Below, piece by piece: positions 19,701 to 63,430 of a DNA stretch of 64,000 nt. Position 1 is the first letter of the stretch. Each line of letters begins with the position of its first letter. The DNA is taken from the NCBI GenBank assembly GCA_023380615.1, contig JAMCRO010000019.1, positions 1,706 to 65,705 of the forward strand, written 5' to 3'. The notes below the pieces were generated by a model. It was not told the origin of the DNA and searched no databases. It saw only the letters and a list, made by a program, of their open reading frames with translations. This stretch comes from Candidatus Parvarchaeota archaeon. Lineage in GTDB: Archaea; Nanobdellota; Nanobdellia; Parvarchaeales; Parvarchaeaceae. The position numbers and the translations under genes were made by a program.

Positions 19701-20527
19701 ATGCCGTTAAGATAAACTGCTAAATTGGAATTTAAGTCCTCTTCCGTCCCTTGATAGATTCCATAAAGATTTCCGTGGCCCCAATAAGGCTGATTATTTT
19801 CTTGTATACTTGAATCATTAACTGATATCGGGACATACTCTAACCCATCACCACCGTCATTTGAGCTAACATCGGTATTGTTCTCTTCAAGAATTCCTGG
19901 AGTAACTAAAAATTTGCTCTGAATTGTTGAGCCATTTATTATTTCAAGCCCGTTATCAACAAATAAATTTGAGGGAGAGCCACTGACTATACTCCATTTA
20001 CTTGTATTCAAACTAGTTCCTTTAAAGTTATCATAGAAATTGAATACATTAGCACCATCATCATACTCCCCATAAGCTTGGGAAAGCTGCGGATCTTCAC
20101 CAGTTGTCTTATTGTTGAATAGATTAGTATCATTAGGTGCAAATCCTATCGCTATATCATTTAAAGTCGTGTTTGCAGGTATTCCGTTCGGCAATTTGAT
20201 CCAGAATATTGCATATTTAGCAGTGTAACTCTCCAGCCAGCTGTCTATTATCGCTCCACTAGTTGTATTAAAAAACTCCACGTTCTGGAAGGAATACTTC
20301 CCAGTTTGATTTATGTACTTGCTGTTTGTTGAATTTATCGTTAAATTAATCATCTGCTGGAAAGGACTGGTAGTAGATACATTTTGCGAATTAGTTATGT
20401 GAATAAGTGAAAAGTATAATATGGAAGAGGAAAAAGCATGGGAACTGCCAATAAAAATTAAGGATACGCAAAGAATGATGAAAAAAGCAATAATGGAGTA
20501 AATACTCTTTGTTTTTATCTGTACCAT
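13787..20527 (-). CDS. giant (2246 aa) Ser/Thr/Asn-rich surface glycoprotein with N-terminal signal/anchor and C-terminal TM plus basic tail
   Basis: N-terminus MVQIKTKSIYSIIAFFIILCVSLIFIGSSHA. C-terminus ...IIIAVVLIVALIFIMLFYSKRRKIKTRGIQVKKKRKGAVNKKRYRNKH. There are hundreds of N-x-S/T sequons. About 160-aa tandem Ig-like repeats (...KINKAVPS...NSQLTA...GNQNYTAYS) are present. Two copies of a lectin-like module (FQQM...SWLES...YAIFWIKLP...GE.PQLS..YGEYDDG..VFN.Y.NF.G.SL...W...YPPKGIMPS) are shared with the 3888-aa protein. Confidence 0.85.
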   Translation of the reverse strand: MVQIKTKSIYSIIAFFIILCVSLIFIGSSHAFSSSILYFSLIHITNSQNVSTTSPFQQMINLTINSTNSKYINQTGKYSFQNVEFFNTTSGAIIDSWLESYTAKYAIFWIKLPNGIPANTTLNDIAIGFAPNDTNLFNNKTTGEDPQLSQAYGEYDDGANVFNFYDNFKGTSLNTSKWSIVSGSPSNLFVDNGLEIINGSTIQSKFLVTPGILEENNTDVSSNDGGDGLEYVPISVNDSSIQENNQPYWGHGNLYGIYQGTEEDLNSNLAVYLNGIFGLWWLSNGDVYGYHNNVEMGSTTITNIPYSESYVGLYAGVKSGTGTGYAYYTWVLSRAYPPKGIMPSILIGKIQKINYTLNLNQVANSNSTIIYGVESNFTALSRNSSVFVRLFINNIKVTNYSKNSTTYLKYFSAGLYKVTAQYNSTSVQNSTYYEEINKAVPNMQLYSLPSDNYTQNGTYLRFNSSIYSLNNQLTAKFYLNKTNKVNTSTASDYNVSDLPNTYLAVLNTTGNQNYTAYSLSLAREIYTVSLYLNGALNSNSTITYGTESNFTAKLPVGYVRLFINNTKVTNYSKNSTQYIKYLAAGLYKITANTNLSGGENVSFYEKINKAVPSISIESSTGNFTYNGDSLNLTGLISTLNSQLTANDYINGKFFATTNTHKSYLNATAGTYKMIFNTTGNQNYTAYSTAKEVIISKAAPSYSLSGQSFTYDGKTTNISATISTVNNQLSATLYVKGVAFSTFNQDSSIYRNATAGSYSTELTSSGNENYSSFTYIETFTISKAEPSMECSDSPLVFLYNGSYFKLTCNISSFNNQLLGNLYLNNLTINSSKSSVSYKNNKVGSYTFIFKAGNENYSEKEINLSNSILGNLSFSLPLIKYFFPITISNYQSISAPSPFQQMVNINSSNLLWSYINHSGQATSQNLEFVYGNGTVIPSWLESDNTLSLSGYNFSTGSTSASTNLPSADYYLCAGGDGNGALSSHSWTDLTSADNYASLGIQNSSTCSDSSGASDIIVGGIALDQKYISYQATNYSSVTSFSSKFKVPIGSTDTILLGSCGFYSCNSIDLPPGCSELFFKSGGDNYETVFAAECQLNPGNYTLSGSLSGSGYVSLGAFYYKSNDLVYWIKLGSIPAGSSKSIYAAIAPNSTNLFNGNTVGEAPNLSKTYGEYDNGVDVFNNYWNFAGSSLPSGWTYYNAEPTINNGLDFANPDELIETTSTYPVNNILEGYAMYPTGLTANMGFGYIVSTSSNSYTIDTLWLQVGSSSGDAYSGIIDNLGDSNNFMTVKSGSDSEFGSASSGILSVVSTGSEAYGYDGYNLVYSDTNYVAPSGNYYIAIGSGGTSGLKIQWLRTRTYPPNGVMPLVEFGSEINVPKLSINNIIGNISGVYGNKSNITANDNSSNGIRILINNKAITSYHKENTTYFNYISGGLNKITVEENLSNSSNYINVTYYANISKKAISQSLTVYPNGSFYYDGIAPVITDKLNESLINGNIINYSLLNSSVYVTSLLSKNNLVNFSNISGKYASAGDYLFKVISNGNENYTIINTSEIMVNISKAHPILSIYTTPSVNYSNNETSLIFHFKISTINSQLLSNFYINNTLENTSVINGTYNASYQPNIFVAKLNTSGNENYTLFSIQKTMQIKLGKLYLYLNGFESNLTTTYPKSLNVSAYSTPSTLPINLYINNTFTASSNGSLHYLKNLAAGFYKITITTNSSGIANVSFYQKIDKAVPKLVLSPYYTSQIYDGSGIPVNLSISSVNNQLYYQLYINSAISFTDNSNVTYTTNASAGSYNIKLFSPGNQNYSGISISTALKIEKAQPILKLALTPDKSFYYNGTPLYLYGTAYSFNNQLSANLYINNQLKGKGYNINYSSSAPIKYGIVFETLGNDNYSSAFENFNLTIMNVTSRSLLTSKTKLFNQSVLNTVFNVSRLNYKEQVQAFRLFPSYNLSIPLPYNVTPVNELSMPVLSNLNGSVFTIYSTKNSSCFGNALSGVLYSFNDSVTANEGNFGEVTYLFSLHKNALSANNIGIKNISLYRCSETKHNWQEIPTFLVNANSTNANYKAVSPGFSQYVIAEGSSLSSAENSSLTVEYVYENGLPSNYRWNATINNVTLQSISGSPILTLVPYGQFKIRFYNLSSHTSNATYSCNVMYTPNIPSNSSLLGIAGIPVTVNYSVSTACIARQKPAFYTPLIEFKGEIIIAVVLIVALIFIMLFYSKRRKIKTRGIQVKKKRKGAVNKKRYRNKH
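18700..19440. repeat. tandem intragenic DNA repeat (period about 480 nt) inside the 2246-aa gene
   Basis: 18700-18930 and 19210-19440 are highly similar by eye (e.g. ttgaatttttagaatagtttgtaacttttgtattgtttatgaaaag vs ttgaatttttagagtagtttgtaacttttatgttgtttatgaaaag). The encoded segments NSTITYGTESNFTAK...VRLFINNTKVTNYSKNSTQYIKY and NSTIIYGVESNFTAL...VRLFINNIKVTNYSKNSTTYLKY correspond. Confidence 0.7.
20161..20400. repeat. copy of the lectin-like-module DNA repeat shared with the 3888-aa gene (52.4 kb and 54.0 kb copies)
   Basis: ttgcaggtattccgttcggcaatttgatccagaatattgc... ttaaattaatcatctgctggaaaggac is clearly similar to 52430-52620 and 53995-54190. Confidence 0.6.
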
Positions 20528-50993: not shown

Positions 50994-51089
50994 ATGTCAA
51001 GCATAGTTTTGGTAGGTGCAGCGGTTTTGTACTTATTGATACTTATAGCCATAATACTTAGAAACAATTCCCTTGCCGCAAAGGTTTGA
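50994..51089 (+). CDS. 31-aa single-TM peptide (MSSIVLVGAAVLYLLILIAIILRNNSLAAKV) with SD-like GAGGGGATGA upstream
   Basis: It lies in an intergenic space between nth and dcd. The purine-rich GGGGATGA sits 6 nt before the ATG. Confidence 0.2.
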   Translation: MSSIVLVGAAVLYLLILIAIILRNNSLAAKV

Positions 51090-51129
51090 GAATTGAAAAA
51101 ATAGGCTTGGTATCAATTATTTGTACTTA

Positions 51130-51648: not shown

Positions 51649-51696
51649 AATTACTTGAATACGCCTATTCATTAAAAACATTTATTTTTATAGGCT

Positions 51697-54600
51697 TTAG
51701 GGTAGTACACTGCCCAAGCTAACGGAAGGCATTACGCCGTCTGGAGGATATACACGAATTCTAAACCAATATATTGGTCCTATTTGCGGTGAAGTAGTAC
51801 TTTGTTCTCCTATTATACCAATCTTTAGGGAGGATGAAGGATTAGTAGTTATTTTCCCCTTTGAACCGTAATTATAGGAGAAATAAGATGCAGAAGAATT
51901 CGGCCAATAAATCTGCCATAAATTAGTTCCTGAGGTCGTTGGTGAACTTAAAGCTGTTCTTGTTCCTCCATCTGTTTGTATTGTCTGCGGGTAAGCTGTA
52001 GATATAGAAAGACTTCCTGTTCCACTGTAATCTAACATAGTCCAAGCAACTTGCATATCATAGGAAGTAGTGCCTGTGATAAAGCCTATAGCTGACTGAT
52101 CTGCAGAGGTTGATGAAGGGATATCCCCGTAAAATTCAAGTAGAGTATCTGAACTTGGGCCGTAAGTATCGTTTGTTTCAATAGCCCCTGTTCCGCTTGA
52201 GGGGTTTATGGTTACGCCATTATTTATGCTCACTGTTCCAGAAGATGTCCATCCAGATGGAACTGTAGTTCCAGCGAAATTCCAGTATTCAGTGAATACA
52301 TCTACCCCATCGTCATATTCCCCATACGTTGAAGAAAGCTGTGGAGCTTCGCCAGTATTGTTGGTATTAAACAGATTTGTATCATTTGATGCAAAGCCTA
52401 TTGCAACGTCTTGTATGGTCGTATCTGCAGGTATGCCGTTCGGCAATTTGATCCAGAATATGGCGTACTTTGAAGTGTAGCTCTCAAGCCATGAATCTAG
52501 TACCTTGCCGGTTGCAATGTTAAAGAACTCAACGTTTTGTAAGGAATATTTGCCAGTCTGGTTTATGTATTGGCTATCTGATGAAGTTATAGTCAAATTA
52601 ATCATCTGCTGGAATGGCACTGAAGTAGGAATAGACTGAGCATTGGTTATATTTATCGGCATATAATAAATTAAGGAAGAAGACAACTGTGGGTATATAT
52701 CTCTTGTTATTGTAATAGAATTTGCAGTATAATTCTGATTTCCACTAGTATTTAGAACTATAGTATAGTTTCCTACACGACTACTTAAATTTAATGTTGT
52801 ACTTTTGTTTATAGTTTTATTAAAAATGCCATTTATATACAATGTTGCATTTAACTGGTTGTTAATAGTAGATATCGATACGTTTATTATGAGACTTGTT
52901 CCATTATATAGATAATTTTTGTTAGGATTTGACACCAGATTAAGTACGGGAGTTGCTTTGTTTATTGTATTATAATAGGACACATTTTTTATGCTCGTGG
53001 AATTGGATCCTCCGATTACTTTTATTTTCCCTGCAGCAAAAAGATTAGAATATGTTGAAATATTGCCAGATAAATTGGTTAAAGATACTACTGAATTATT
53101 TAACTCCTTCCAAAGTTTGACATAGTGATTATCAGACTCAACTGTAAAATTACTATCTTTACCATAAATCATTGTAATATTATTGTTCGAGATGCCGTTT
53201 ATAAACAGAGTTATTGGTTTCGTAACTAATGTATTTAATTTAACAGAAGGCATTACGCCGTCTGGAGGGTAAGCACGAACATTAACCCAATAAACAGATA
53301 TGGGATTAGTATACTCATTAGTTAAAGATAAACCAATCGATGATGAATATGCTGGAATAGTAGTTGTTATGGTTTGTCCTGAACTTCCTAATGTTGAATA
53401 GGTATTTGGATTATAAAATAAAACTTGCGTGTCCGTAGCGGCTATACTCCATATAACGGAAGTATTTGCTAAAGAACTCCAAGAACCTATCTCATTTTGT
53501 GTTCCTGATGAGCCAGCATCTGTATTTGCATACCAATTTCCATTATCATATATCTGTTCGCCAAAAGATTGTGTAGATGAACCTCCAAAGTAAGTTGGAT
53601 TTGAATTTGTAAATCCCCATCTAAATGTTGTATTAGTTGAGGGGCTATTTTCATAAACATCTGCCACTACAGATCCATCGAAACTTCCAGAACTTAAAGA
53701 GGTTTTAATCCAAGTTTGATGAGAAAGCCCTCCTGTTCCGCCACCTGTTAAAGTTAATTTATTACTCACTATAATATCTGAGGTAGAACCACTTGTTCCT
53801 GAACTGCCAAAGCTGCTCCACTTTGTAGTATTTAAACTAGTTCCTTTAAAGTTATCGTAAAAATTGAATACATTGGCTCCATCGTCGTATTCTGCATATG
53901 TAGGGGATAGCTGAGGTGCTTCACCAGTATTATTAATGTTAAACAGATTTGTATCATTGGATGCAAAGCCTATTGCAACGTCTTGTATGGTCGTATCTGC
54001 AGGTATTCCGTTCGGCAATTTAATCCAGAATATGGCGTACTTTGAAGTGTAGCTCTCAAGCCATGAATCTAGTACCTTGCCGGTTGTAGTGTTAAAAAAC
54101 TCAATATTTTGGAAGGAATGTTTGCCAGTCTGGTTTATGTATTTGTTATATGATGAGTTTAACGTTAAATTAATCATCTGCTGGAAAGGCTGTTTAGTAG
54201 CAGAAGTTTGAGAGTTGGTAATGTTCAACACTGCGTATTTGTAAATACTTTGAGGAGTAACTAAGCTATGTTTAGAGAAGTTTATCGTAAGTTTTCCAAA
54301 TGAAACCGTATAACCGGAAGAAGAATTTGGTACATAAATTTCACTTGAAAAGGTTATATTGTTGATACTGTAACTGTAATTGCCAAAATTACTTGCAAGT
54401 GTTATCAAGTTTGAGATTGAAGAGTTCACTTTATTGTCGTATTTCACAGTCCAATTGGTACCCGAAGGAAGCCCTTCTTCAACAAATTGCTTAATGCATG
54501 CCCAGCTAGATATGTTGTTAGAAGTTCCTGGGTCTGCAATGCCATTGGACGAACAACTTATGTTTGACCCCGCAGAATAAGTATAAATAATCGAATTAGA

Positions 54601-57600
54601 GGAATTAAAGTTTATTTTTATCGCACTCCCAGTTTTATTGCTATTGTTTACCCCGTTGTAATCAACCCACCAATTATTGCCTTTAGGCAGTGTACTCTGA
54701 TTGAAAGTAGTGGTGCAGTCCCAATTAGAAAAGACATACGTAGAACCTGCCTCAACGGATGCGGGCTTTACCCTGCACGACATATTAGTTGACGCCGTTG
54801 CAGTATAATTACCATACGGAATATTGTGAATTATTATCGTATTATTCGAATTATTTAAAGAGGTCTTTGGCGCAATAAATGACACTGTTGGCATAACACC
54901 GTTAGGATATGAAAGTGCTATAGTTGGAGCTGTCAAAATGAATCCTCCTGGACCACAGCTCCCCCCGCCGTTTCCTCTAGAAGTGCCCAAGAGATACTGC
55001 CCAGGGGGTAAATTGACTGAACCGTAGGATGATAGACAGTAGGGTGTGTTAAAGAAATCGTTGAAATATGATTTGCCGGTTGAAACGCTGATTATACTCA
55101 ATCCAGAGTAACCCCCGCTTCCACCTGCCATGTAAATATTAACATCTCCCCCTCCCCATGAACATATCATTTCATTATTTCCTCCAGGATAGTTCTCCAT
55201 GTTAAAGAAATCGCCACATGATGTGTAATTTTCACTTAGCTTTACGGGAAGCTGGGAACCTGTTGAGGGTTGAGGGTACGGGCCTAACTTTGGAGATACA
55301 CTTGAATTAAGGCTATTAAGTACATCTGTAGAATTCGATGCAAACCCTATATAAACATATGTAAACGAATTGGCAGGTATCTCCCCCAAATCTAACCAGT
55401 ATACCGCATCGTTACTGTAGCCGTAGTTTTCAAGCCAACTGGAAATTATTGTTCCGTTTGGATAGAAAAATTCAACATTTTGGAAATTGGATGCTGCGAG
55501 ACCCCCGTAAACTGTATTATTTACAGTTACCATTTGCTGGAAAGAAGACGCTGTGGAAACATTCTGAAAATTGCTTATTTTTAAAAGCTTATATTTTGTT
55601 ATGTTACTTAAATCTGAAGTTTGGGATGCAGAAGTACTTCCATTTTTGCCATCGAAAGCAACAGACCAGTTACCTATAAGACCCTTCTCTGAGAAAACAG
55701 TTGTACAGAGATCAGACGATAATGAAAAGTGAATATTAATAATAGCCCCTGCATTTTCTTTGGAATCAGTAACGTTTGAAGTATATGTAGATATACAGTT
55801 TAAGGTTGATGATTTATTTGAAGAAGTATAAACTGATAAATTATAACGGCCTGGAACGGTACTAAAAGTCATATAATCAGCTGTTGCGGATTTATTTATT
55901 CCATCAAATGAAGCGTACCAGCGGTACCCTTGCGGTAAACCGGTCTCTGTTAAATTTGTTGTTACCAGCGTAAGATTAATAAAAACAGAAGGCATTACTC
56001 CATTTGGAGGATAGGCACGTACACGAATCCATTGATATTGCTGATCAAATGACGCCCCATTACCTGTGTTATAATCCCCCAAATTAATATAAAGAGGTGC
56101 AGAAGGATTATCGGAAGTAGTTGAAGATGTGGATCCGTAATTAAGAAAAGTAGTTACTCCATTAACTGAAGATAATGAAACGGAATAGATGTTCCAGTTC
56201 AAATTATAGGATGTTGATTGGAGATATGTATATGCCCCATTAAGAACACTTTCGGATTGGATAATATCCCCTAAATTGTCCTTTCCTGCCGACCACCCTG
56301 CAATTGTATCTCCAGTTCCACCATTATTATCCCAAACAGGCTCTGAATTGCTGACAGTAGATATCCCTATAAGTCCTCTTTCATTTCCAGTATTTCCCTT
56401 ATTTTGATTAATGTAACCTTCCAATATCTCATTATTACTAAATACCTGATGAGTAGTTGCAACATATGTCGAACCAGACGTGCTTCCATCTCCACTTATG
56501 GTAAGACCGTTATCTACGGAAACTTTTGACCCTGAAACCGCACCAGAATTCCATATATTTGTATTTAAACTTGTTCCGTTGAAGTTAGCATAGAAGTTAA
56601 ATACATTTGCCCCATCATCATATTCCGCATATGTTGAAGATAACTGTGGTGCCTCTCCTGTTGTGTTGATATTGAAATTATTGGAATAAGCTAGGAGGGT
56701 CTGATTGAATATCATGTCAATGGCTATGCTGCTTTCCGCCGGAATGCTTTTAATTTTTAGCCAGTATACAGTATCATTTGAGGTATTCGAATTACCAGAT
56801 TCCAACCATGAAGGAATAACTGTTCCATTCTGATATGTAAACATTATGTTTGTTAATTTGGAGTTTTCATCTTTTGAATATTTTGAAGAGTTAAAAACAA
56901 GCATCTGCTGGAAGGGTTGTGAAGTTGCTGTTGACTGGTTATTATAAAACGAAATAGGGATTATAACGGGCTTTTTATAAGCAGAAGTATCATTTGAAAA
57001 TACAAATGTTGCATTAGATCCGGATGCAATGAATCCACCAGATATATTAGACAAAAAGCCAGAGTTGTAGTCTACTGATGGATAAACCTTGAAAGTATAA
57101 TTATCACTATAAGAAGTTGTAAATTCCATAATATTTGACTTAGAAGAACCATTTTTACCGTTTAAATTTACTATCCAGGTATAACCTGATGGAAGCCCTT
57201 CTTCTTTAAAGTAGGTATGACAAACGCTACTGAAATTGATCATTTCTGTAGAGCCTGAAGTGACACTGCCAGAAGAAGGGACTGGAATAAAATTACACTG
57301 CGATTGGTTTTCAGCTTGTACCGAAAAACCAAAAGAAGACAAAGCAGAGGTATTGAAAGTAATATTGCTGGAGATGGAAGAATTCTTTATACTGTTATAT
57401 GTAACTGACCAATTATCTTTTAAAGGCAAGCCGGTTTCATTAAATGTAGTTATACAAAAGGAAACTGAAAAACTTACATCTGTATCTGAACCTGCAGCAA
57501 TACCGCCGTTTGCAGGAGTAGCAATGTATCTACAGCCTGCAATATTCACTGCAGGCACTGTAAAGTTATACAGCCCTTTGGTGGTATTTAAAGAAATATA

Positions 57601-60600
57601 TTTTTTGGTAGATGAATTTGACATATTTGCAAAGGTTACGCCCCATTTTGTACTGCTAGGTAAACCGGATTCGGTGAAATTAGAGATACAATAATCTTCC
57701 GTAAACTTTACATAGGTATAATGGCCTGCTTGTGCATAACCATTTGATTCATTGGAAACAAAATAACAATTATGGTAATCAATAGATGGCACAGAAAATG
57801 AATAATTACCACTTATAATATTGAAACTTATGTCCGATAAAGAAGATGAATTAGTCAGATTATCGTACTTTACAGCCCAGCTAATTCCGGACGGTAAGCC
57901 GGTTTCTATAAATTCGGAATAACAGTAATTTGAAAAGCTAATAATTGTGCTTGATCCAGCAGTTAAATAGCCGCTGCTTGGATCTGGCGTAAGATAACAG
58001 TTTGTTGATACTTGTATCCTTGGCACTGAAAAAGAGAAGTTTCCATAAATAGAGTCCACATCCAATGAACTATTAGAAGAATAATTTGTTATACCGTCGA
58101 ATTTAACACTCCAAGTTATTCCTTTTGACAAACCTGTTTCATTAAATAAAGTTATACAAGAAGAAGAAAAAGAAAGAAGTAAAGAAGAGCCTGCAGCAAT
58201 GTGACCGTCGCTTGGATTTGGAGTAAAGACACAGCCACCATCTTTTATGCTGTATGCAGTAAAGTTAAAAGTACCCGGAATCGTTGATAGCTCTAATGAA
58301 GTTTTATTTGAACTGTAATTGATATTATTATAAGTTAACGTCCATTTTGTATTAGAAGGAAGGTTACCCTCTGTAAATGTAGTGTAGCATCTTGTCTGAT
58401 TGAATATTAGATATAAAGTTGACCCAGCAGCAAGTTCTGAAGAGCCATTCTTGGCAACATACAGACAGTTATTTAAAGTTAAGTTTTCTACAGTGTACTT
58501 AAAAGTGCCTGGAGGAGTCACAAACTGGATGCTTGTACTTGTAGACGCACTGCTCTGATTATCATATGTTAAATTCCATTCACTTCCCGGTGGCAGCCCG
58601 TTCTCATAGAATACGGTTGTGCATCCTCCACTGTAACTTACGCTAACCCTTGAACCCGCTATCGTATTTCCAGAAGAAGGATTTGGTCGGTATGAACAGC
58701 TGGAATTGCCTATAAATGGCAGACTATACGCATAAGTACCGTTTATTGATGGCACTTTTATTACAGAGGCATTTGATGAAACCGTAGTGCCGTTATATGT
58801 AACAAACCAGTATGTGTTTTTTGGCAAGCCGGTTTCATTGAAAGAAGTAAGGCATGATGCAGTAAAATGAACTGTGAAATAACCTCCTGCTGCGGTACTA
58901 CTAGACAAAGGTTCCGGAGAAAATACACAATTAGATAGATTTATTGGATAAAATTTTGCCGTAAAAATTCCGGGAGGGGTGGTTATTGTAACGTTATTAT
59001 TAGAGGGACTCTCTGTTATCCCGTCAAAGGTAAGCTTCCACTGCGTATTAGCCGGCAAACCCCTCCCTATAAAGGTAGTATTGCAGGTATTTTCAATAAA
59101 TGATATATTTATATTTCCACCTGCGATGAGATAGCCTGAAGCGGGGGAGGGCAAAAAGGAACAATATGAAGAATCAACCGTATTCAAAGAAAAAGAGAAA
59201 TTACCCGGAGTTGTTATAAAGCTTATATTGGATAGGCTGGAAGAATTAAGAATTCCGTCATATTTAACAGACCAAGTAGCACCTGAAGGCAATCCATCCT
59301 GAGAAAATGTGGATAAGCATTCCTTTGTATATGAAATACTGGCAGATTCTCCTGCCACTAAATAGGAAGATTCAGGTTTAGGATAATAAAAGCACCCAGG
59401 CCCTGCATTTATGATTTCGGAAGTATAAGAGTGATTTCCGGGTAAAGCGTATATTATTACTGATTTATTGAAAGAACTTCCAGACACTCCATCAAAATTC
59501 ACATCCCACTCTGTATCATTTGGCAAGCCGGTTTCATTAAAAATAGTCTTGCAAGTGTTTATATAAGTAGCATTGACATACGAGCCTACTTCTGTAGTTC
59601 CACTTGGTGAAGTTAAATTTATATGGCAACCGTCCTCTGAAATGCTTTTAGGCTTTATATGATAATTATAAGAGTTATTCGAGAAAGAGTCATTAAATAT
59701 TATTTTTGAAGTATTGGATGCTTTTGATAAAACATTGAAGGTAACATTCCATTCACTATCGCTTGGTAAGCCAGTTTCCTTAAAAGTAGTAAGACAGAAT
59801 ATTCCTGTGAATTTAATATTCAAAATAGATGATGTGTTGAGTGTACCCTGTGTTACGTTTGAAGTATAGAAACAGCCGCTACTTTCAGCAGTGAATACTT
59901 TAAAGTTATACGATCCTTCGTTTGTTAAGAATGAAATTTGATTGGAGTTGGAGGAAGCGTTTATATTATTAAAGGACACATACCAGTCTGTCCCTTTCGG
60001 AAGACCGGTTTCCTTAAAAGAGGTTATACAGTTATCTCCAAAGATTATAGAAAGGTTATTACCGGGAGCTATTGATCCGGAAGAGGGCTGTGGGTCATAT
60101 GCACAGAATGTATTTATTGGTACGCTCTCTACGGAATACGGATTGGCGGATGAATTTGAGGAACTAACTATTATTTTATTTGAGGTAGAAGAATATAATT
60201 TGTAGGAATATATTTCAGATGGATTTGGCAAATTATAATCAAAATAAGAGGGAAAAGAATCATTTACTTCCCACTTTGTACCGTTAGGTAAGCCAGTTTC
60301 TGTAAAAATAGTCTTGCATGCAGCACTAAAATGAACCGTAATATGAGAACCTGCAACTAATATCTCATTATAACTTGTAGAAAAAACACAGCCGTTTATA
60401 CTTACAGTAGGGATATGAACAGAGTAGTTTCCTGGATCCGTTGTGACTACGGTAAAATTCCTTGTTGAATAATTAGTTATATTGTCTATCGAAACGCTCC
60501 AATTTACATTTTTGGGCAGGCCTGTTTCAGTAATATTAGAAGTACATGAGCTTGGAGAGAAATAAACGCTGGCATTTCCACCTGAAACAAGATTACCGCT

Positions 60601-63363
60601 AGAATTAAGTGATTTAAAAATACAGCCTTTACCAAAGGTGTTTGGCACGTTGTAAGAATAATTTCCAGGCGGGTTTAATATAGACAAATTGTCTTTGTAT
60701 GTTGAAATGGTATTTCCATCGTAAGTTACGGACCATTGCACATTGTTGTAAAGCCCAGCCTCATAAAAGGTTGATATGCACTTCTCAACATAATTTACTG
60801 TGAGTCCTGTTCCAGCCGTATCGTTCCCAACGGCAGGCTGTGGTATGTAGTAACATGAACTTCCCGCACTAACATTACTTATTGAGTATGGAAAAGTACC
60901 GTAACTGGTCTTTATAGCTATTAATGTACCTATGGAAGAGTTAGACTTACTGTTATAACTAACACTCCAAAGACTGTTTACTGGAAGACCTTTTTCATTA
61001 AAATCCGTATAGCATAAGCTGCTGAAGCCTATGACCGAAGAAGAACCTGCATATATAAATCCACTAGATTCATTTGGTGAGAACACGCATGTTCCAAGGG
61101 TTATCTTTCCAACCGAAAAAGAATAGTTTCCTGGAAAGCTGCTGAAAGAAATTGAATTTGTCTGGGAATCTGAAGTTGAACCATTAAAAATTACCTGCCA
61201 AGAAGCCCCTTGCGGCAAGCCAACTTCCGAAAAAACTGTATCGCATGTTGTAAGATTAAACGTTACATGTACATCGTTACCAACACTTGTAGATCCGGAA
61301 GTTTGATTTGGCGCATAGTTACAGCCATTGTAGCTTGTCTGCGGTACTTGATAGTAGTACTTACCCTGCGGAAGCAGAAACGATACATTCTGATTTATAG
61401 AATGCTTTGTTATTCCTGCAAATGTTACCGTCCAATTCGCCCCGGATGGCAAACCAGGATCTATAAAATCTGTCGTACAATCATCTGTAAATCCTACTGT
61501 TTCGTTTGAACCTGCCGTTATACTACCAGAAGACGGAGAAGGTACATAATAACACCCCCTACTTATCGGTTGCGAAGCAATTGAAAAAGGATAGGAACCG
61601 TTTACCGTATCAAAATAAATTCCTGTTGACGTTGATAATTTTGTTTTATTATCAAAAGTAGCATTCCATTCAGTGTCATTCGGCAGACCTGTTTCACTGA
61701 AGGTTGTAGTACATTCTCCCGAAAATGTTATAAGTTGGAGTTCTCCCGCAAGTATGGTTCCATTTTTAGGAGAAGGGGTAAATATGCAGTTTCCAACCTT
61801 CAGTACTGACACATTATAATAAAAAGTTTTTCCCTTATAGTAAGGGAATTCTATCGAGGAATTAAACGCTCCGTCTCTTGTCTGATTGTCATAATCCACT
61901 GACCAAGACACCCCTATAGGTAACCCTTTGGAAACAAAAACAGTATGACATGTTTGAGCAAAAGATATAATGAGAGAGGAACCTGCTGTTAAATTTCCAG
62001 TAGAAGGAGTAGGAGAGTATATGCACCCCCCTTGAGTCGCATTTGGAACAGAAAAACCAGCGAATACATTAGATGTATTGAATCTTATTGTATCATAAGT
62101 GGACTGTTGGATTTTATTGTCATACCTTACTGTCCAATTCAAACCTACCGGCAGATTTTTCTCTAAAAAGGATGTTATGCAACTTCCAGAAAAATCAACT
62201 AAAATAGAAGAACCGGCAGCTACTGGATTGCTAGAATTTGCAATTGGACTAAATGTGCAATTCCCAGATATTATTGGCTTTAATTTTAAGTTACTAACCG
62301 TGTAATTAGAACTTATCACCAAGGATGAATCAGAAGAGTGTGCAGTTATGTTATCAAAGGTCGCATTCCACTTTGTACCCACTGGCAAACCTTCTTCACT
62401 TACTGAAGTATTGCATACGGAATTAAAGGTTATCAAAACAGTTTGGCCTACCGTAGCGTTTCCATTTTCTGGATCTGGAGTAAAGATGCAGTTGTTTTTG
62501 TTAATTACTGAGACATTAAATATTGGAATCAAAGAAGCCGAATTGGTGGGAATGAAAACTATCTGAGTAGAATTTGAACTATTTGTTAGATTATCATACC
62601 TTATGGTCCAGGTATATCCTTGCGGTAAACCTGTCTCTAAAAATGTAACTGTATTTGATTTAGAACTGCATGTTGTGAAAAAGATGATATATTCAGATGA
62701 ACCTGCATTAACAGATCCTGATTGGGGATAAGGGTAATAAGGACAACCATTATAGGCTGAATCAGATACTGAAAAAGGGTAATTTCCATAAGAAGAAATG
62801 AAATACGTAGAATTCGTGTTAACATTTCTAGAAACATTGCCATACAAAACTGTCCAGTTTACTTTATTAGGTAAACCATACCTAACAAATGTCGTATTGC
62901 ATACTGCCGAAAACGAAATATGAACGGAATTTCCGGCAGAGGTATTACCTGATTCTGGAGAAGGCAAGAAAGTACAGCCGTTTAAAAAGACTTTATTTAC
63001 ACTAAATGAAAAGCTTTTGAGAAAAGAAGAATAATTTAGATAATTTACATTAGAATAGGATGTACCGGATGGAAGCGAAATAGACCAAAGTGTATTTAAA
63101 GGCAGCCCAGATTCATAGAAAATTGTGTACTTTGGTGCAGGAATGGTGGTATTTGTAATATTTGTAGGAGGAGTAACACTTATATTTTTAGGAGCGGTTA
63201 TTGTTATTGGTTTTAATCCAAACAATTTTGCAATGTTTAAGCCTAGGAAACTATTGAGCGTGCTCAAAAAAAACAAGATTATAAATAGTATGATTATCGC
63301 AATTAAAAACGCTGTAAAGTGTACACTATGGCTTTTCTTTTGAGATTGCGTAGTAGATTTCAT
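51697..63363 (-). CDS. giant (3888 aa) Ser/Thr/Asn-rich surface glycoprotein: N-terminal signal-anchor, more than 20 tandem about 100-aa two-Cys repeats, then at least 4 lectin-like modules
   Basis: N-terminus MKSTTQSQKKSHSVHFTAFLIAIIILFIILFFLSTL. Repeats of the form E.GLP.G..W.V.YDN.T..S......F....G.Y.F.V........C.F.P.P.SG...AGS...I.F...C.T.F fill the first roughly 2300 aa. The C-terminal half carries modules with FQQM(I/V)..N.T, SWLESY..KYAIFWIKLPNGIPADTTIQDVAIGFASNDTNLFN, GEAPQLS.TY(A/G)EYDDG(A/V)(N/D)VF..Y.NF.GT and W.R.R(A/V)YPP(N/D)GVMPS. Sequon density is very high. No C-terminal TM is present. Confidence 0.85.
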   Translation of the reverse strand: MKSTTQSQKKSHSVHFTAFLIAIIILFIILFFLSTLNSFLGLNIAKLFGLKPITITAPKNISVTPPTNITNTTIPAPKYTIFYESGLPLNTLWSISLPSGTSYSNVNYLNYSSFLKSFSFSVNKVFLNGCTFLPSPESGNTSAGNSVHISFSAVCNTTFVRYGLPNKVNWTVLYGNVSRNVNTNSTYFISSYGNYPFSVSDSAYNGCPYYPYPQSGSVNAGSSEYIIFFTTCSSKSNTVTFLETGLPQGYTWTIRYDNLTNSSNSTQIVFIPTNSASLIPIFNVSVINKNNCIFTPDPENGNATVGQTVLITFNSVCNTSVSEEGLPVGTKWNATFDNITAHSSDSSLVISSNYTVSNLKLKPIISGNCTFSPIANSSNPVAAGSSILVDFSGSCITSFLEKNLPVGLNWTVRYDNKIQQSTYDTIRFNTSNVFAGFSVPNATQGGCIYSPTPSTGNLTAGSSLIISFAQTCHTVFVSKGLPIGVSWSVDYDNQTRDGAFNSSIEFPYYKGKTFYYNVSVLKVGNCIFTPSPKNGTILAGELQLITFSGECTTTFSETGLPNDTEWNATFDNKTKLSTSTGIYFDTVNGSYPFSIASQPISRGCYYVPSPSSGSITAGSNETVGFTDDCTTDFIDPGLPSGANWTVTFAGITKHSINQNVSFLLPQGKYYYQVPQTSYNGCNYAPNQTSGSTSVGNDVHVTFNLTTCDTVFSEVGLPQGASWQVIFNGSTSDSQTNSISFSSFPGNYSFSVGKITLGTCVFSPNESSGFIYAGSSSVIGFSSLCYTDFNEKGLPVNSLWSVSYNSKSNSSIGTLIAIKTSYGTFPYSISNVSAGSSCYYIPQPAVGNDTAGTGLTVNYVEKCISTFYEAGLYNNVQWSVTYDGNTISTYKDNLSILNPPGNYSYNVPNTFGKGCIFKSLNSSGNLVSGGNASVYFSPSSCTSNITETGLPKNVNWSVSIDNITNYSTRNFTVVTTDPGNYSVHIPTVSINGCVFSTSYNEILVAGSHITVHFSAACKTIFTETGLPNGTKWEVNDSFPSYFDYNLPNPSEIYSYKLYSSTSNKIIVSSSNSSANPYSVESVPINTFCAYDPQPSSGSIAPGNNLSIIFGDNCITSFKETGLPKGTDWYVSFNNINASSNSNQISFLTNEGSYNFKVFTAESSGCFYTSNVTQGTLNTSSILNIKFTGIFCLTTFKETGLPSDSEWNVTFNVLSKASNTSKIIFNDSFSNNSYNYHIKPKSISEDGCHINLTSPSGTTEVGSYVNATYINTCKTIFNETGLPNDTEWDVNFDGVSGSSFNKSVIIYALPGNHSYTSEIINAGPGCFYYPKPESSYLVAGESASISYTKECLSTFSQDGLPSGATWSVKYDGILNSSSLSNISFITTPGNFSFSLNTVDSSYCSFLPSPASGYLIAGGNINISFIENTCNTTFIGRGLPANTQWKLTFDGITESPSNNNVTITTPPGIFTAKFYPINLSNCVFSPEPLSSSTAAGGYFTVHFTASCLTSFNETGLPKNTYWFVTYNGTTVSSNASVIKVPSINGTYAYSLPFIGNSSCSYRPNPSSGNTIAGSRVSVSYSGGCTTVFYENGLPPGSEWNLTYDNQSSASTSTSIQFVTPPGTFKYTVENLTLNNCLYVAKNGSSELAAGSTLYLIFNQTRCYTTFTEGNLPSNTKWTLTYNNINYSSNKTSLELSTIPGTFNFTAYSIKDGGCVFTPNPSDGHIAAGSSLLLSFSSSCITLFNETGLSKGITWSVKFDGITNYSSNSSLDVDSIYGNFSFSVPRIQVSTNCYLTPDPSSGYLTAGSSTIISFSNYCYSEFIETGLPSGISWAVKYDNLTNSSSLSDISFNIISGNYSFSVPSIDYHNCYFVSNESNGYAQAGHYTYVKFTEDYCISNFTESGLPSSTKWGVTFANMSNSSTKKYISLNTTKGLYNFTVPAVNIAGCRYIATPANGGIAAGSDTDVSFSVSFCITTFNETGLPLKDNWSVTYNSIKNSSISSNITFNTSALSSFGFSVQAENQSQCNFIPVPSSGSVTSGSTEMINFSSVCHTYFKEEGLPSGYTWIVNLNGKNGSSKSNIMEFTTSYSDNYTFKVYPSVDYNSGFLSNISGGFIASGSNATFVFSNDTSAYKKPVIIPISFYNNQSTATSQPFQQMLVFNSSKYSKDENSKLTNIMFTYQNGTVIPSWLESGNSNTSNDTVYWLKIKSIPAESSIAIDMIFNQTLLAYSNNFNINTTGEAPQLSSTYAEYDDGANVFNFYANFNGTSLNTNIWNSGAVSGSKVSVDNGLTISGDGSTSGSTYVATTHQVFSNNEILEGYINQNKGNTGNERGLIGISTVSNSEPVWDNNGGTGDTIAGWSAGKDNLGDIIQSESVLNGAYTYLQSTSYNLNWNIYSVSLSSVNGVTTFLNYGSTSSTTSDNPSAPLYINLGDYNTGNGASFDQQYQWIRVRAYPPNGVMPSVFINLTLVTTNLTETGLPQGYRWYASFDGINKSATADYMTFSTVPGRYNLSVYTSSNKSSTLNCISTYTSNVTDSKENAGAIINIHFSLSSDLCTTVFSEKGLIGNWSVAFDGKNGSTSASQTSDLSNITKYKLLKISNFQNVSTASSFQQMVTVNNTVYGGLAASNFQNVEFFYPNGTIISSWLENYGYSNDAVYWLDLGEIPANSFTYVYIGFASNSTDVLNSLNSSVSPKLGPYPQPSTGSQLPVKLSENYTSCGDFFNMENYPGGNNEMICSWGGGDVNIYMAGGSGGYSGLSIISVSTGKSYFNDFFNTPYCLSSYGSVNLPPGQYLLGTSRGNGGGSCGPGGFILTAPTIALSYPNGVMPTVSFIAPKTSLNNSNNTIIIHNIPYGNYTATASTNMSCRVKPASVEAGSTYVFSNWDCTTTFNQSTLPKGNNWWVDYNGVNNSNKTGSAIKINFNSSNSIIYTYSAGSNISCSSNGIADPGTSNNISSWACIKQFVEEGLPSGTNWTVKYDNKVNSSISNLITLASNFGNYSYSINNITFSSEIYVPNSSSGYTVSFGKLTINFSKHSLVTPQSIYKYAVLNITNSQTSATKQPFQQMINLTLNSSYNKYINQTGKHSFQNIEFFNTTTGKVLDSWLESYTSKYAIFWIKLPNGIPADTTIQDVAIGFASNDTNLFNINNTGEAPQLSPTYAEYDDGANVFNFYDNFKGTSLNTTKWSSFGSSGTSGSTSDIIVSNKLTLTGGGTGGLSHQTWIKTSLSSGSFDGSVVADVYENSPSTNTTFRWGFTNSNPTYFGGSSTQSFGEQIYDNGNWYANTDAGSSGTQNEIGSWSSLANTSVIWSIAATDTQVLFYNPNTYSTLGSSGQTITTTIPAYSSSIGLSLTNEYTNPISVYWVNVRAYPPDGVMPSVKLNTLVTKPITLFINGISNNNITMIYGKDSNFTVESDNHYVKLWKELNNSVVSLTNLSGNISTYSNLFAAGKIKVIGGSNSTSIKNVSYYNTINKATPVLNLVSNPNKNYLYNGTSLIINVSISTINNQLNATLYINGIFNKTINKSTTLNLSSRVGNYTIVLNTSGNQNYTANSITITRDIYPQLSSSLIYYMPINITNAQSIPTSVPFQQMINLTITSSDSQYINQTGKYSLQNVEFFNIATGKVLDSWLESYTSKYAIFWIKLPNGIPADTTIQDVAIGFASNDTNLFNTNNTGEAPQLSSTYGEYDDGVDVFTEYWNFAGTTVPSGWTSSGTVSINNGVTINPSSGTGAIETNDTYGPSSDTLLEFYGDIPSSTSADQSAIGFITGTTSYDMQVAWTMLDYSGTGSLSISTAYPQTIQTDGGTRTALSSPTTSGTNLWQIYWPNSSASYFSYNYGSKGKITTNPSSSLKIGIIGEQSTTSPQIGPIYWFRIRVYPPDGVMPSVSLGSVLP
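52381..52620. repeat. near-identical direct repeat copy 1 (inside 3888-aa gene)
   Basis: tatcatttgatgcaaagcctattgcaacgtcttgtatggtcgtatctgcaggtatgccgttcggcaatttgatccagaatatggcgtactttgaagtgtagctctcaagccatgaatctagtaccttgccggttg... is almost base-for-base the same as 53941-54190. Confidence 0.75.
53941..54190. repeat. near-identical direct repeat copy 2 (inside 3888-aa gene), about 1.56 kb from copy 1
   Basis: See the 52381..52620 entry. Only a handful of mismatches are visible by eye over about 240 nt. Confidence 0.75.
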
Positions 63364-63382
63364 AATACCTTTTTAGACTATA

Positions 63383-63396
63383 ATATCTACAGATAT
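63383..63396. promoter_or_regulatory. perfect inverted repeat ATATCT-AC-AGATAT in the divergent promoter region between the 3888-aa gene and xth
   Basis: The arms are 6 bp with a 2-bp spacer. It lies 20 nt upstream of the giant-gene start codon (minus strand) and 35 nt upstream of the xth ATG. Confidence 0.25.
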
Positions 63397-63430
63397 TCAT
63401 ATAAATACTATATATAGAATATAATAGACT

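Follow-up and report, generated by a model that had tools for sequence, protein, structure and literature searches.

A candidate giant fibrillar adhesin with a constant 26-repeat stalk and variable lectin-like heads in Candidatus Parvarchaeota

Introduction

A central problem in DPANN biology is how these archaea recognize and attach to their hosts, and for the Parvarchaeota (ARMAN-4/5) both the host and the means of attachment have yet to be established. The stretch of DNA analyzed here (64,000 nucleotides, referred to as the window) contains a gene of 11.7 kb, which a first-pass annotation made from the sequence alone had described as encoding a very large, mosaic surface protein. This locus raises the question of whether such a protein serves the integrity of the envelope, adhesion or some other purpose.

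Results and Discussion

The Gene and the Soundness of Its Reading Frame

51697..63363, minus strand: whole gene, 3888-aa protein with ATG start (ORF list and translation)

The annotated single long ORF was recovered as one ATG-started frame. According to its composition, the encoded protein has a mass of 419 kDa before glycosylation, a pI of 5.0 and 60 Cys; Ser, Thr, and Asn account for 36% of its residues and charged residues for 10%, compared with 22-31% charged residues in the cytoplasmic neighbours.

A frame of this length could in principle be an assembly artefact of collapsed repeats or a non-functional relic. The underlying data are short-read metagenome assemblies, the longest internal DNA repeat of the gene measures 300 nt at 86% identity (N-terminal frame of modules M3 and M4, see below), and a related contig (L002) changes similarity abruptly just outside the gene, at window coordinate ~50978. 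Against this, two independent ENA metagenome contigs code for an identical 3888-aa protein, and both match the window with 0 nucleotide mismatches over 13 kb (coordinates ~51000-64000), so that the same sequence is present in three sources. Repeat collapse is not plausible either, because the stalk repeats are only 60-70% identical among themselves at the DNA level; Tandem Repeats Finder detected no array in the gene, and the frame is intact through 11.7 kb. In addition, orthologs share the 26-repeat architecture down to 47-50% identity, and the sequon enrichment and cysteine coupling described below indicate purifying selection. Collapse, which the first-pass annotation had raised as a concern, is contradicted by these observations, and we assign next to no probability to an artefact or a relic.

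The close relatives of the gene, and likewise those of its syntenic flanks, all belong to Candidatus Parvarchaeota/ARMAN-4/-5-type DPANN genomes, with dCTP deaminase, HhH-GPD, and AhpC forming the conserved flanking synteny. The proposal that the gene belongs to a cell-wall-less archaeon is therefore not upheld, the more so as descriptions of ARMAN cells mention a wall or outer layer. An origin in Thermoplasmatales was likewise ruled out by homolog taxonomy and synteny. The gene neighbourhood contains housekeeping genes only, with no glycosylation or pilus genes, and searching the literature for the orthologs' ARMAN locus tags yielded no paper.

N-Terminal Anchor and Sequon Enrichment

63256..63363, minus strand: aa 1-36, short basic tail MKSTTQSQKKSHSVH followed by a ~21-residue hydrophobic helix (Kyte-Doolittle, ortholog N-termini)
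63130..63255, minus strand: aa 37-78, Pro/Thr-rich linker next to the membrane, containing sequons, …KPITITAPKNISVTPPTNITNTTIPAPK (translation)

A Kyte-Doolittle scan of all 3888 aa located a hydrophobic helix at aa ~13-36, following the basic tail, and no second TM-like segment (none outside aa 10-45), in agreement with the earlier description of an N-tail and one signal-anchor helix. Residues 1-36 are hence a predicted signal-anchor that would, by the positive-inside rule, hold the protein in the membrane with its N-terminus inside. At the opposite end, the protein terminates in YPPDGVMPSVSLGSVLP, with neither a sorting signal nor a TM helix.

The sequon N-x(not P)-S/T occurs 187 times, compared with 101.3 +/- 8.3 occurrences expected from 2000 composition-preserving shuffles of the 3888-aa protein (z = 10.3, shuffle maximum 133), and the reversed motif, used as control, is found 106 times. 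This 1.85-fold enrichment corresponds to a density of 4.8 per 100 aa, with 0.2-1.7 per 100 aa in the cytoplasmic neighbours. The reported abundance of sequons thus exceeds chance, but their spacing is about one per ~21 residues and not one every few residues. Given this enrichment, the protein is probably N-glycosylated, and dense N-glycans together with the very low charge content might stabilize the rod in acid.

A Stalk of 26 Abutting Beta-Sandwich Repeats

56980..63129, minus strand: aa 79-2128, stalk built of 26 beta-sandwich repeats of ~78 aa in direct succession (HMM delineation, alignment, AF2)
55576..55962, minus strand: aa 2468-2596, repeats R27 and R28, the latter partial/degenerate (hmmsearch E 1.2e-16 and 6e-5)
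54256..54876, minus strand: aa 2830-3036, R29, a partial repeat, and R30, which has lost the two Cys (E 1.3e-7 and 1.2e-21 by hmmsearch; alignment)

Where more than 20 tandem repeats of about 100 aa had been noted, the tandem array was confirmed, with 26 contiguous copies abutting without linkers and about four further copies between the modules, but the period is ~78 aa. The repeats are ~32% identical to one another at the protein level, and their consensus, xTxFxExGLPxGxxWxVxYDxxxxSSxxxxIxFxxxxGxYxFSVxxxxxxxCxxxPxPxSGxxxAGSxxxIxFSxxCxT, reproduces the frame E-x-G-L-P-x-G-x-x-W ... C-x-x-x-P-x-P-x-S-G ... A-G-S ... C that had been read from the sequence. Cys52 and Cys77 are strongly coupled: 129 repeats contain both, 5 neither, and 1 a single one. 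This pair may form an intradomain disulfide in each repeat.

The AF2 model of the repeat (pLDDT 96) is a small beta-sandwich of 9 strands. A Foldseek comparison with the PDB found similarity to beta-sandwiches of a generic kind, weak in every case (best E 0.046); among solved folds, the sandwiches of adhesins and pilins and carbohydrate-binding-like ones came nearest. A specific named fold family is not claimed. Profile searches against PDB sequences with the repeat, the wider repeat family, and the module gave nothing significant. Ig-like domains are usually 3.5-4 nm long, and on the assumption of this length per domain a rod of 26-30 domains would span about 90-120 nm.

Neither Pfam nor NCBIfam assigns a family to the repeat, as the first reading had suspected. 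A profile built from 28 repeats matched 5957 cluster representatives in an exhaustive search (clusters at 50% identity), compared with 2 matches in a word-indexed search using the repeat alignment. By sequence profile, the repeat is part of a large archaeal family lacking a Pfam model, and with about 6000 archaeal clusters at 50% identity this family is worth curating. It includes a cysteine-free repeat, YxVTFxESGLPxGTxWSVxLNG…GYxxxPxSGxxTVxG, found in Thermoplasmata, Marsarchaeota, and others, which shares the F-x-E-x-G-L-P-x-G-x-x-W start and the S-G…G end with the parvarchaeal repeat, whereas the latter adds the coupled Cys52/Cys77. In the lineages with the cysteine-free version the repeat carries other heads, e.g., propellers and proteases, and the family elsewhere in archaea also bears ice-binding-like and pectate-lyase-like adhesive domains. 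This diversity of heads fits a generic stalk role of the repeat.

Head Modules With Conserved Frames and Hypervariable Cores

55978..56946, minus strand: aa 2140-2462, module M1, DUF2341 beta-sandwich, GEAPQLSSTYAEYDDG linker, predicted ConA-like jelly roll, and WIRVRAYPPNGVMPS (Pfam, module HMM)
54883..55575, minus strand: aa 2597-2827, module M2, DUF2341-like N-part and a different Cys/Gly-rich core of lesser length, ending in SYPNGVMPT (Pfam, module HMM)
53236..54219, minus strand: aa 3049-3376, module M3, DUF2341 and predicted ConA-like jelly roll; the module used for modelling
52648..53235, minus strand: aa 3377-3572, ~195-aa spacer before M4 (Pfam, BLAST to orthologs)
51700..52647, minus strand: aa 3573-3888, module M4, C-terminal and presumably membrane-distal end (module HMM, DNA repeat)

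At least four large modules with common motifs had been described, and four were indeed delineated. SWLE is present in all of them (aa 2185/2642/3100/3624), and PFQQM at aa 2150/3059/3583 is replaced by SFQQM at 2607 in M2. The other motifs are not universal: M2 is without the GEAPQLS and EYDDG linker that the other three modules contain, and YAIFWIKLP is confined to M3 and M4. The terminal YPP(N/D)GVMP is found at aa 2451/3365/3872, with the variant YPNGVMPT at 2819. Pfam recognized DUF2341 (PF10102; 66.4 bits, E 3.3e-18) in three stretches, namely M1, M3, and M4, and no other domain in the 3888-aa protein. M2 alone scored 23.2 bits, barely under the gathering score of 23.4 bits, and the module HMM covered only positions 2-106 on it. 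The ~195-aa spacer matched nothing significant in Pfam; BLAST showed it to be conserved in orthologs and duplicated in some (two copies in P0279), and it probably represents further beta-rich domains.

The model of M3 is of medium confidence (pLDDT 74.8), and the most conserved segment of the module, GEAPQLSxTYAEYDDG, falls below a pLDDT of 50. By structural similarity the modelled module has a concanavalin A-like two-sheet jelly-roll fold, which is consistent with the earlier proposal of a lectin-like (concanavalin/LamG-like) module. Its matches include the L-type lectins VIP36 and ERGIC-53, legume lectins, and an M. jannaschii lectin, and the best ones are GH16 laminarinases, lichenases, and O-glycanases. 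The latter, together with the need of DPANN archaea for external carbohydrate, might suggest a glycan-degrading scaffold, in which GH16-like glycanases on a stalk harvest host or biofilm polysaccharide. However, the GH16 motif E[hydrophobic]D[hydrophobic]{1,2}E is absent from the whole protein, as is the looser E.D..?E, and core positions 140-310 of 70 homologs contain no conserved acidic residue or acidic pair. With the catalytic motif absent, the enzyme reading was rejected, and a glycanase scaffold appears very improbable to us. As glycoside hydrolases also have the ConA-like fold, it is only the absence of a catalytic motif that points to lectin activity; the jelly-roll heads may act as lectins, and they could bind glycans of the biofilm matrix or of co-occurring Thermoplasmatales hosts, which are wall-less and have a mannose-rich glycocalyx.

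A search for conserved residues in the module core found none, and the frequency of the majority residue is 0.2-0.3 in the core compared with 0.6-0.9 in the frames. The frames of the module are conserved and the cores hypervariable. The 'DUF2341' module is worth curating at its full extent, i.e., DUF2341 and the ConA-like jelly roll ending in W-x-R-x-R-x-YPPNGVMPS.

A Second Giant Protein and Stand-Alone Module Proteins

13787..20527, minus strand: second module-bearing protein, 2246 aa (module HMM E 2.4e-84)

The module is reused in this 2246-aa protein, as the first-pass annotation had stated, but the two genes lie 31 kb apart and are not adjacent. The second giant has a Sec-type signal peptide, two modules, of which one lies at aa 45-347 and the other is split between aa 886-950 and 1110-1365, a PGF-pre-PGF domain, a C-terminal TM helix with basic tail, and 116 sequons. 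In both the 3888-aa protein and this C-terminally anchored protein the modules lie opposite the predicted anchor.

Among the 120 closest stand-alone module homologs, 59 have a pilin-like N-terminus, in which K-[AS]-Q-S-A-x-E-Y-L is followed by a hydrophobic helix and which resembles the QXSXEXXXL/DUF361 class processed by EppA. As Pfam and NCBIfam recognized no class III signal at the N-termini of the stand-alone homologs, the motif is what this pilin-like reading is based on. It leads to the possibility that the giant protein is itself a pilus-associated adhesin, assembled onto or acting with type IV pili that display the stand-alone DUF2341 proteins. Cores common to the giant and the stand-alone proteins, as well as the occurrence of DUF2341 proteins in Methanococcus pilus loci, would agree with this. 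The same holds for the [KR][KR]G found directly before the HFTAF helix in 3/5 ortholog N-termini; the motif HFT(A/T)F, which precedes the helix, is conserved across orthologs. The giant protein, however, reads KKS-HSVHFTAF, with Ser and not Gly/Ala before the helix, and lacks the Q+1/E+5 class III signal, which Pfam and NCBIfam did not recognize at its N-terminus either. Furthermore, its neighbours are housekeeping and not pilus genes, and a pilin-like subunit of 419 kDa would lack precedent. We therefore consider a pilus-associated adhesin quite improbable.

Orthologs With a Constant Stalk and Exchanged Heads

Orthologs of 3947-4712 aa are found in ARMAN-5 and other Parvarchaeota. Exactly 26 N-terminal repeats are present in 4/4 ortholog clusters, and the individual stalk repeats are positionally orthologous in 26/26, 26/26, 21/26, and 21/26 cases, respectively. 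Identity to the closest ortholog amounts to 84% in the stalk and 98% in the M3 core, whereas the M1 and M4 cores reach 18-19%. For the M1 core the value is 18%, compared with 74% identity to P0105, a stand-alone protein. Similarly, the block aa 2481-2840, which includes M2, matches P0124, a distant ortholog, at 57-75% identity but the closest ortholog at no more than 32-45%. For the M4 core, no relative above ~46% identity was present in the database searched. These sequence comparisons indicate that orthologs exchange module cores with one another and also with the stand-alone module proteins, and such swapping of head cassettes might alter binding specificity, i.e., host range.

It is tempting, if tentative, to go one step further: Parvarchaeota could hold a 26-domain 'ruler' stalk at fixed length while shuffling pooled lectin-head cassettes among the giant anchored fibre, the second, C-terminally anchored giant, and dozens of small pilin-like tip proteins, with the invariant, apparently disordered GEAPQLSxTYAEYDDG and the terminal YPPNGVMPS as conserved recombination and folding frames. 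We regard such a receptor-switching system as possible but doubtful. If true, it would be how the host range of an archaeal episymbiont is set and changed, comparable to the exchange of phage tail-fibre cassettes.

Fibrillar Adhesin or Envelope Protein

Fibrillar adhesins are an operational class defined by a stalk, an adhesive domain, and an anchor. In the protein studied here, the stalk is an array of 26 + 4 beta-sandwich repeats; the adhesive part would correspond to the lectin-fold modules predicted at the C-terminus, opposite the helix, and the putative anchor to the lone hydrophobic helix of 21 residues that follows the basic tail. As the modules are C-terminal and the predicted anchor N-terminal, the heads would be membrane-distal. 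The proposed architecture would run from the N-terminal anchor through a rod of 26 abutting domains to a C-terminal head region with four modules and four more repeats. We thus favour, as fairly likely, that the gene product is a giant membrane-anchored fibrillar adhesin of Parvarchaeota, N-glycosylated and with exchangeable lectin-like heads, for holding host cells or biofilm.

The main alternative to be weighed is a structural cell-envelope protein (S-layer-like or glycocalyx) whose chief role is envelope integrity. Like archaeal S-layer glycoproteins, the protein is rich in Ser, Thr, and Asn, enriched in sequons, and low in charge; it carries a predicted membrane anchor at the N-terminus, and beta-sandwich repeats build some archaeal surface-layer proteins (PMC5498576). 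Yet no S-layer family (PF05123, TIGR01564/TIGR01567, and similar) was found in Pfam/NCBIfam at E <= 0.1. The mass of 419 kDa lies far beyond the range of 40-200 kDa quoted for S-layer proteins, and 60 Cys do not fit with the few sulfur-containing residues of the latter. Related Micrarchaeota instead employ a conventional ~101-kDa S-layer protein of PF05123, which is their most abundant protein. Moreover, a rod with distal, variable heads and swapped cassettes would be unexpected for a lattice-forming protein, and the organism is not a wall-less archaeon. An envelope-structural main role is thus, in our judgement, unlikely. Of the two functions proposed at first, envelope integrity or adhesion, adhesion is the better reading; integrity is unsupported, because the organism is not wall-less, no S-layer family matched, and the architecture is one of a stalk with distal heads. 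The more general description of a very large, mosaic, sequon-enriched surface protein is supported. As a candidate fibrillar adhesin, the gene offers a concrete starting point: it is lineage-conserved, takes up ~1% of a ~1-Mb genome, and combines a constant stalk with variable lectin-like tips.

Comparison With Known Systems

DUF2341 proteins encoded in archaeal type IV pilus loci have been proposed as pilus-tip adhesins (PMC4858521). Among them, arCOG03508 and M. maripaludis MMJJ_08210 (PMC4858521, PMC10133366) share DUF2341 with the 3888-aa protein, and the stand-alone homologs of Parvarchaeota and Micrarchaeota, often pilin-like at the N-terminus, recall these pilus-locus proteins. Unlike the latter, the giant protein has no pilin-type signal or pilus locus, and its four modules are borne by a stalk of 26 domains.

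ARMAN/DPANN have an expanded set of LamG-like jelly-roll proteins, for which a role in host contact was proposed (PMC5498576, PMC10266531). Mia14 (PMC5498576) and SVXNc_0801 of Ca. Nanohalococcus (PMC10266531) have in common with the 3888-aa protein the jelly-roll fold (here predicted), its presence in multiple copies, the DPANN context, and a proposed role in host recognition, but proteins of this type have been described at the level of the domain class only. The papers retrieved contain no description of the DUF2341-linker-jelly-roll-YPPNGVMPS module, its hypervariable core or the Cys-stapled 78-aa stalk. The SPEARE proteins of Nanohaloarchaeota (8880-9409 aa), which contain a VirB4/TraG-like ATPase domain and were proposed to be secretion devices (PMC10266531), are likewise giant surface proteins of ectosymbiotic DPANN archaea, with tandem Ig-like domains and a proposed role in host interaction. 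They differ by the ATPase domain and by additional C-terminal membrane segments, whereas the protein described here has no ATPase domain and a single TM helix.

Among bacterial proteins, the comparison extends to fibrillar (stalk-plus-tip) adhesins, of which Salmonella SiiE is one. Another is MpIBP of Marinomonas primoryensis, a 1.5-MDa ice-binding adhesin with a PA14 lectin domain (PMC8092209). Both have no sequence relationship to the archaeal protein, but they resemble it in being giant and anchored at one end and in having a tandem Ig-like/beta-sandwich rod with distal sugar-binding modules, the anchor and the sugar-binding modules being predicted in the archaeal case. The anchor would be an N-terminal TM helix here, in place of the type I secretion or cell-wall anchoring of the bacterial adhesins, and where bacterial fibrillar adhesins are stabilized by Ca2+, Cys pairs and probably N-glycans would take this part in the parvarchaeal protein. 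Finally, unlike those of the bacterial adhesins, the archaeal stalk repeats have not been recently homogenized but are old and positionally orthologous, with a mutual identity of 32%.

Integrity and organization of the giant gene

The giant gene is a single ORF with an ATG start (51697..63363, minus strand) that translates into 3888 aa. The first-pass annotation had considered that such an ORF might be an artefact of collapsed repeats. This explanation is less well supported, as two ENA metagenome contigs that were assembled independently (31-32 kb each) encode the identical protein; one of them (L002) shows 0 nucleotide differences to the window at ~51000-64000, and the other 99.98% identity across 15.3 kb. 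At the DNA level the internal repeats share only 60-70% identity, the largest internal duplication comprises 300 nt at 86% identity, and Tandem Repeats Finder detected no array in the gene, so that collapse or expansion during assembly is not credible and the ORF is regarded as real.

Below window position ~50978, between the genes for a dCTP deaminase (51130-51681) and an HhH-GPD glycosylase (50216-50866), contig L002 (13175-15947), which stems from a second sample, changes abruptly to ~13% divergence from the window. In this flank, L002 shares 96.9% identity with the genome of another species. The switch might reflect either natural recombination shifting the adhesin-bearing segment among populations or a chimeric short-read contig. 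An antisense ORF inside the giant gene (152 aa, TTG start, window 57236-57694, plus strand) is most likely a product of chance, lying opposite a long region poor in stop codons.

The encoded polypeptide (419 kDa, pI 5.0) is organized as follows; stalk-type repeats were delineated with an HMM built from the repeats.

Features of the giant protein (gene on the minus strand)
aa ~13-36: TM-like segment, the sole one of the protein, preceded by the basic tail MKSTTQSQKKSHSVH
aa 37-78: Pro/Thr-rich linker with sequons
aa 79-2128: stalk, 26 repeats back to back
aa 2140-2462: module M1
aa 2468-2553, from 2554 (partial), 2884-2952 (partial) and 2957-3036: about four extra repeats among the C-terminal modules
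aa 2597-2827: module M2, with a DUF2341-like N-terminal part and a different, shorter Cys/Gly-rich core, ending in SYPNGVMPT
aa 3049-3376: module M3
aa 3377-3572 (window 52648-53235): spacer of ~195 aa
aa 3573-3888: module M4

A hydrophobicity scan of the whole protein revealed no C-terminal anchor. The recurring motifs listed in the first-pass annotation are present as described, with some exceptions; the repeat period, however, is ~78 aa (76-82 aa, with one unit of 96 aa) and not the ~100 aa proposed there. The ~195-aa spacer matched no family and has no significant relation to the 78-aa repeat; it is kept in orthologs, with two copies in the ARMAN-5-type ortholog P0279 (aa 3119-3312 and 3624-3813).

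The N-terminus KKSHSVHFTAFLIAII… is kept in orthologs as [KR][KR]x-x-x-x-HFT(A/T)F. The juxtamembrane motif [KR][KR](G/S/H)-x-x-x-HFT(A/T)F-(L/M)-(I/V) (aa 12-36, window 63256-63330) is conserved in P0121, P0276, P0279 and P0124 despite an overall identity of only ~50% among orthologs. Gly occupies the would-be prepilin-type cleavage position in three of five N-termini, and in neither the giant protein nor its orthologs does the motif match the FlaFind or QXSXE patterns.

The stalk repeat and its conservation

The repeats, whose consensus is xTxFxExGLPxGxxWxVxYDxxxxSSxxxxIxFxxxxGxYxFSVxxxxxxxCxxxPxPxSGxxxAGSxxxIxFSxxCxT, share a mean identity of 32% with each other. AlphaFold2, run with an alignment of 28 paralogous repeats, predicted a 9-strand beta-sandwich (pLDDT 96). 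Foldseek searches of this model against the PDB yielded generic sandwich domains only (best E 0.046), among them the rhamnogalacturonan-lyase middle domain, Gram-positive pilin/adhesin domains and starch-binding modules, while sequence profiles found nothing in the PDB. The first-pass annotation did not recognise the repeat as a named domain, and the repeat has no match in Pfam or NCBIfam.

The family is nevertheless large: a search with the repeat profile recovered 5957 cluster representatives (clustering at 50% identity) at E <= 1e-3, of which 1089 reach E <= 1e-30. It lacks a Pfam model and is a candidate for curation as a new domain. Named members belong to Thermoplasmata and Marsarchaeota; neither cysteine appears in their consensus, YxVTFxESGLPxGTxWSVxLNG…GYxxxPxSGxxTVxG, and the repeat yields only sporadic partial Pfam matches there. 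Two giant proteins from other archaeal lineages, P0125 (3552 aa with 43 repeats) and P0126 (2674 aa with 23 repeats), are built almost wholly from cysteine-free repeats and contain no DUF2341 modules. Partners of the repeat elsewhere include beta-propellers and ice-binding-like, pectate-lyase-like, phosphoesterase and protease domains, a diversity that would fit a general-purpose extracellular stalk domain. Over the repeats of five Parvarchaeota orthologs, Cys52 and Cys77 occur together in 129 units, are both missing in 5 and occur singly in 1, as expected of a pair forming a putative intradomain disulfide.

All four ortholog clusters have exactly 26 repeats ahead of the first module. The repeat at the same position is the best match for 26/26 repeats in both the closest ortholog P0121 (mean stalk identity 84%) and P0276 (71%), and for 21/26 in both P0279 (49%) and the distant P0124 (50%), against an off-diagonal identity of ~32% in all comparisons. 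This ordinal orthology and the constant number argue that the array is old, not homogenised and conserved in length.

Structure and exchange of the modules

In each module, Pfam assigns just the N-terminal ~85 aa to DUF2341 (66.4 bits). The model of M3, computed from 70 homologs (pLDDT 74.8, pTM 0.77), comprises an N-terminal sandwich that matches the DUF2341 part, a linker of low confidence (residues 100-116) with the invariant GEAPQLSxTYAEYDDG, and a jelly roll. This motif (window ~53887-53937 in M3, with equivalents in M1 and M4) is the best-conserved stretch of the module family yet the least confidently modelled (pLDDT below 50), and its G, E, Y, Y, D and G are invariant in the 70 homologs; it may be a metal site, a partner-binding loop or a processing site.

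The modules might alternatively form the scaffold of a GH16-like enzyme. This reading is less well supported, given that the GH16 catalytic motif is absent from the entire protein and that conserved acidic residues are confined to the DUF2341 part and the linker in the 70 homologs, and not found in the cores. Within the jelly-roll core (module positions ~140-310) the majority-residue frequency is 0.2-0.3 versus 0.6-0.9 in the frames; a scaffold that is conserved while its core is hypervariable speaks for diversified binding, and against catalysis, as the predicted function.

Relationships differ strongly between blocks. Compared with P0121, the stalk is 84% and the M3 core 98% identical, whereas the M1 and M4 cores reach only 18% and 19%. 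The core of a stand-alone module protein of 310 aa (P0105), by contrast, shares 74% identity with the M1 core, and the figure for a 494-aa DUF2341 protein from Parvarchaeota (P0057) is 68%. The block aa 2481-2840 (the stalk-type repeats R27 and R28 plus M2) is 57-75% identical to P0124, whose stalk reaches only 50%, versus 32-45% to P0121. For the M4 core, a collection of 5.8 billion proteins contained nothing above 43-46% identity over the module. These incongruent identities show that lineages have exchanged blocks with one another, and that the giant protein has done so with small module proteins. An assembly chimera was ruled out as the cause, because the shared blocks are 57-77% and not ~100% identical.

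Sequons and further sequon-rich proteins of the window

The giant protein contains 187 sequons (N-x(not P)-S/T) versus 101.3 +/- 8.3 expected from 2000 composition-preserving shuffles (z = 10.3; shuffle maximum 133), and the reversed motif (106) equals expectation. Sequons are thus under selection; the heavy N-glycosylation proposed in the first-pass annotation is consistent with this enrichment, and the protein is probably glycosylated. Within the repeat, sequons occupy many positions and no one fixed site. Their density is 4.8 per 100 aa (cytoplasmic proteins encoded in the window have 0.2-1.7), charged residues make up 10% versus 22-31% in cytoplasmic neighbours, and Ser/Thr/Asn account for 36% of residues. 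Two further ORFs are similarly sequon-rich.

Window 13787-20527 (minus strand): 2246-aa surface protein with a Sec-type signal peptide and N-terminal modules
Window 1955-3109 (minus strand): 384-aa ORF whose N-terminal region is acidic, with one TM helix (aa ~64-85)

Reuse of the module in the 2246-aa protein, noted earlier, was borne out by a full DUF2341/ConA-like module (aa 45-347) and a second, split one (aa 886-950 and 1110-1365). The protein also carries a PGF-pre-PGF domain (TIGR04213, 39 bits), and a very basic tail accompanies its C-terminal TM helix. Its 116 sequons (5.2 per 100 aa) compare with 57 expected from composition. The 384-aa ORF, in which 21 sequons (5.5 per 100 aa) compare with ~10 expected, matched no family and is probably a small N-glycosylated membrane or surface protein.

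Source organism

Among named proteins, those closest to the module come from Candidatus Parvarchaeum acidiphilum ARMAN-4 (BJBARM4_0839, 57% identity), from other Parvarchaeota and from Micrarchaeota. Full-length orthologs of the giant protein (3947-4712 aa) exist, and the set includes the ARMAN-5 fragments BJBARM5_1093 and BJBARM5_0819. In GTDB species genomes, the four loci encoding a relative (73-86% identity) are labelled Candidatus Parvarchaeota archaeon or 'Nanoarchaeota archaeon', all with dCTP deaminase, HhH-GPD glycosylase and AhpC downstream, as in the window. Homolog taxonomy and shared downstream genes therefore indicate a Parvarchaeota (DPANN) archaeon and rule out a wall-less, Thermoplasma-type source; the first-pass annotation had assumed a cell-wall-less archaeon.

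Predicted function and comparison with known systems

In both the giant and the 2246-aa protein the modules lie opposite the predicted membrane anchor, the latter in reverse topology. This placement, the conserved rod and the variable lectin-fold heads jointly make a fibrillar adhesin the best-supported prediction for the giant protein. Ig-like domains usually measure 3.5-4 nm each, so that 26-30 sandwich domains would span ~90-120 nm. A role as S-layer or envelope-integrity protein is less well supported: in the related Micrarchaeota a conventional S-layer glycoprotein of ~101 kDa (PF05123 type) is highly abundant, and no S-layer model of Pfam or NCBIfam matched the giant protein.

A pilus-associated subunit is likewise less well supported. 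Among the 532 module homologs, mostly 450-550 aa long, 59 of the best 120 start with K-[AS]-Q-S-A-x-E-Y-[LM]-x-T-Y-G-W-A-I-L-I-I, which places Q at +1 and E at +5 ahead of a hydrophobic helix; other homologs carry ordinary Sec-type signal peptides. The Q+1/E+5 start is similar to that of EppA-processed archaeal type IV pilin-like proteins of the QXSXEXXXL/DUF361 class (PMC2910488), a likeness in the motif alone, since Pfam and NCBIfam called no class III signal on the stand-alone homologs. The giant protein itself lacks Q+1/E+5. DUF2341 proteins in Methanococcus pilus loci were proposed as tip adhesins by Makarova et al. (PMC4858521), and a screen for mutants defective in transformation repeatedly hit a DUF2341 gene of the M. 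maripaludis epd locus (PMC10133366).

For the predicted adhesin, the surface glycoconjugates of Thermoplasma, which are mannose-rich, and reported contacts between ARMAN and Thermoplasmatales cells (summarised in PMC5498576) suggest that the putative ligands are likely glycocalyx glycans of co-occurring wall-less Thermoplasmatales or biofilm-matrix glycans. The giant gene matters mainly because it offers a tangible entry point to host recognition by Parvarchaeota.

Giant surface proteins and LamG/ConA-like expansions are already known as a class in DPANN. In the ARMAN-2-related Mia14, Golyshina et al. observed that LamG-like jelly-roll proteins are expanded and that some of them are tied to pilus loci; they suggested that these proteins take part in host contact (PMC5498576). 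Orthologs of the giant protein have been public since the ARMAN-5 genome as 'hypothetical' or 'DUF2341 domain-containing' proteins. The literature searched contained no description of the Cys-stapled 78-aa stalk repeat or its large unnamed family, of how far the DUF2341-jelly-roll-YPPNGVMPS module extends, of a stalk conserved strictly at 26 repeats, or of the exchange of head cores as cassettes. In contrast to many bacterial adhesin stalks, the Parvarchaeota stalk is old, not homogenised and conserved in length.
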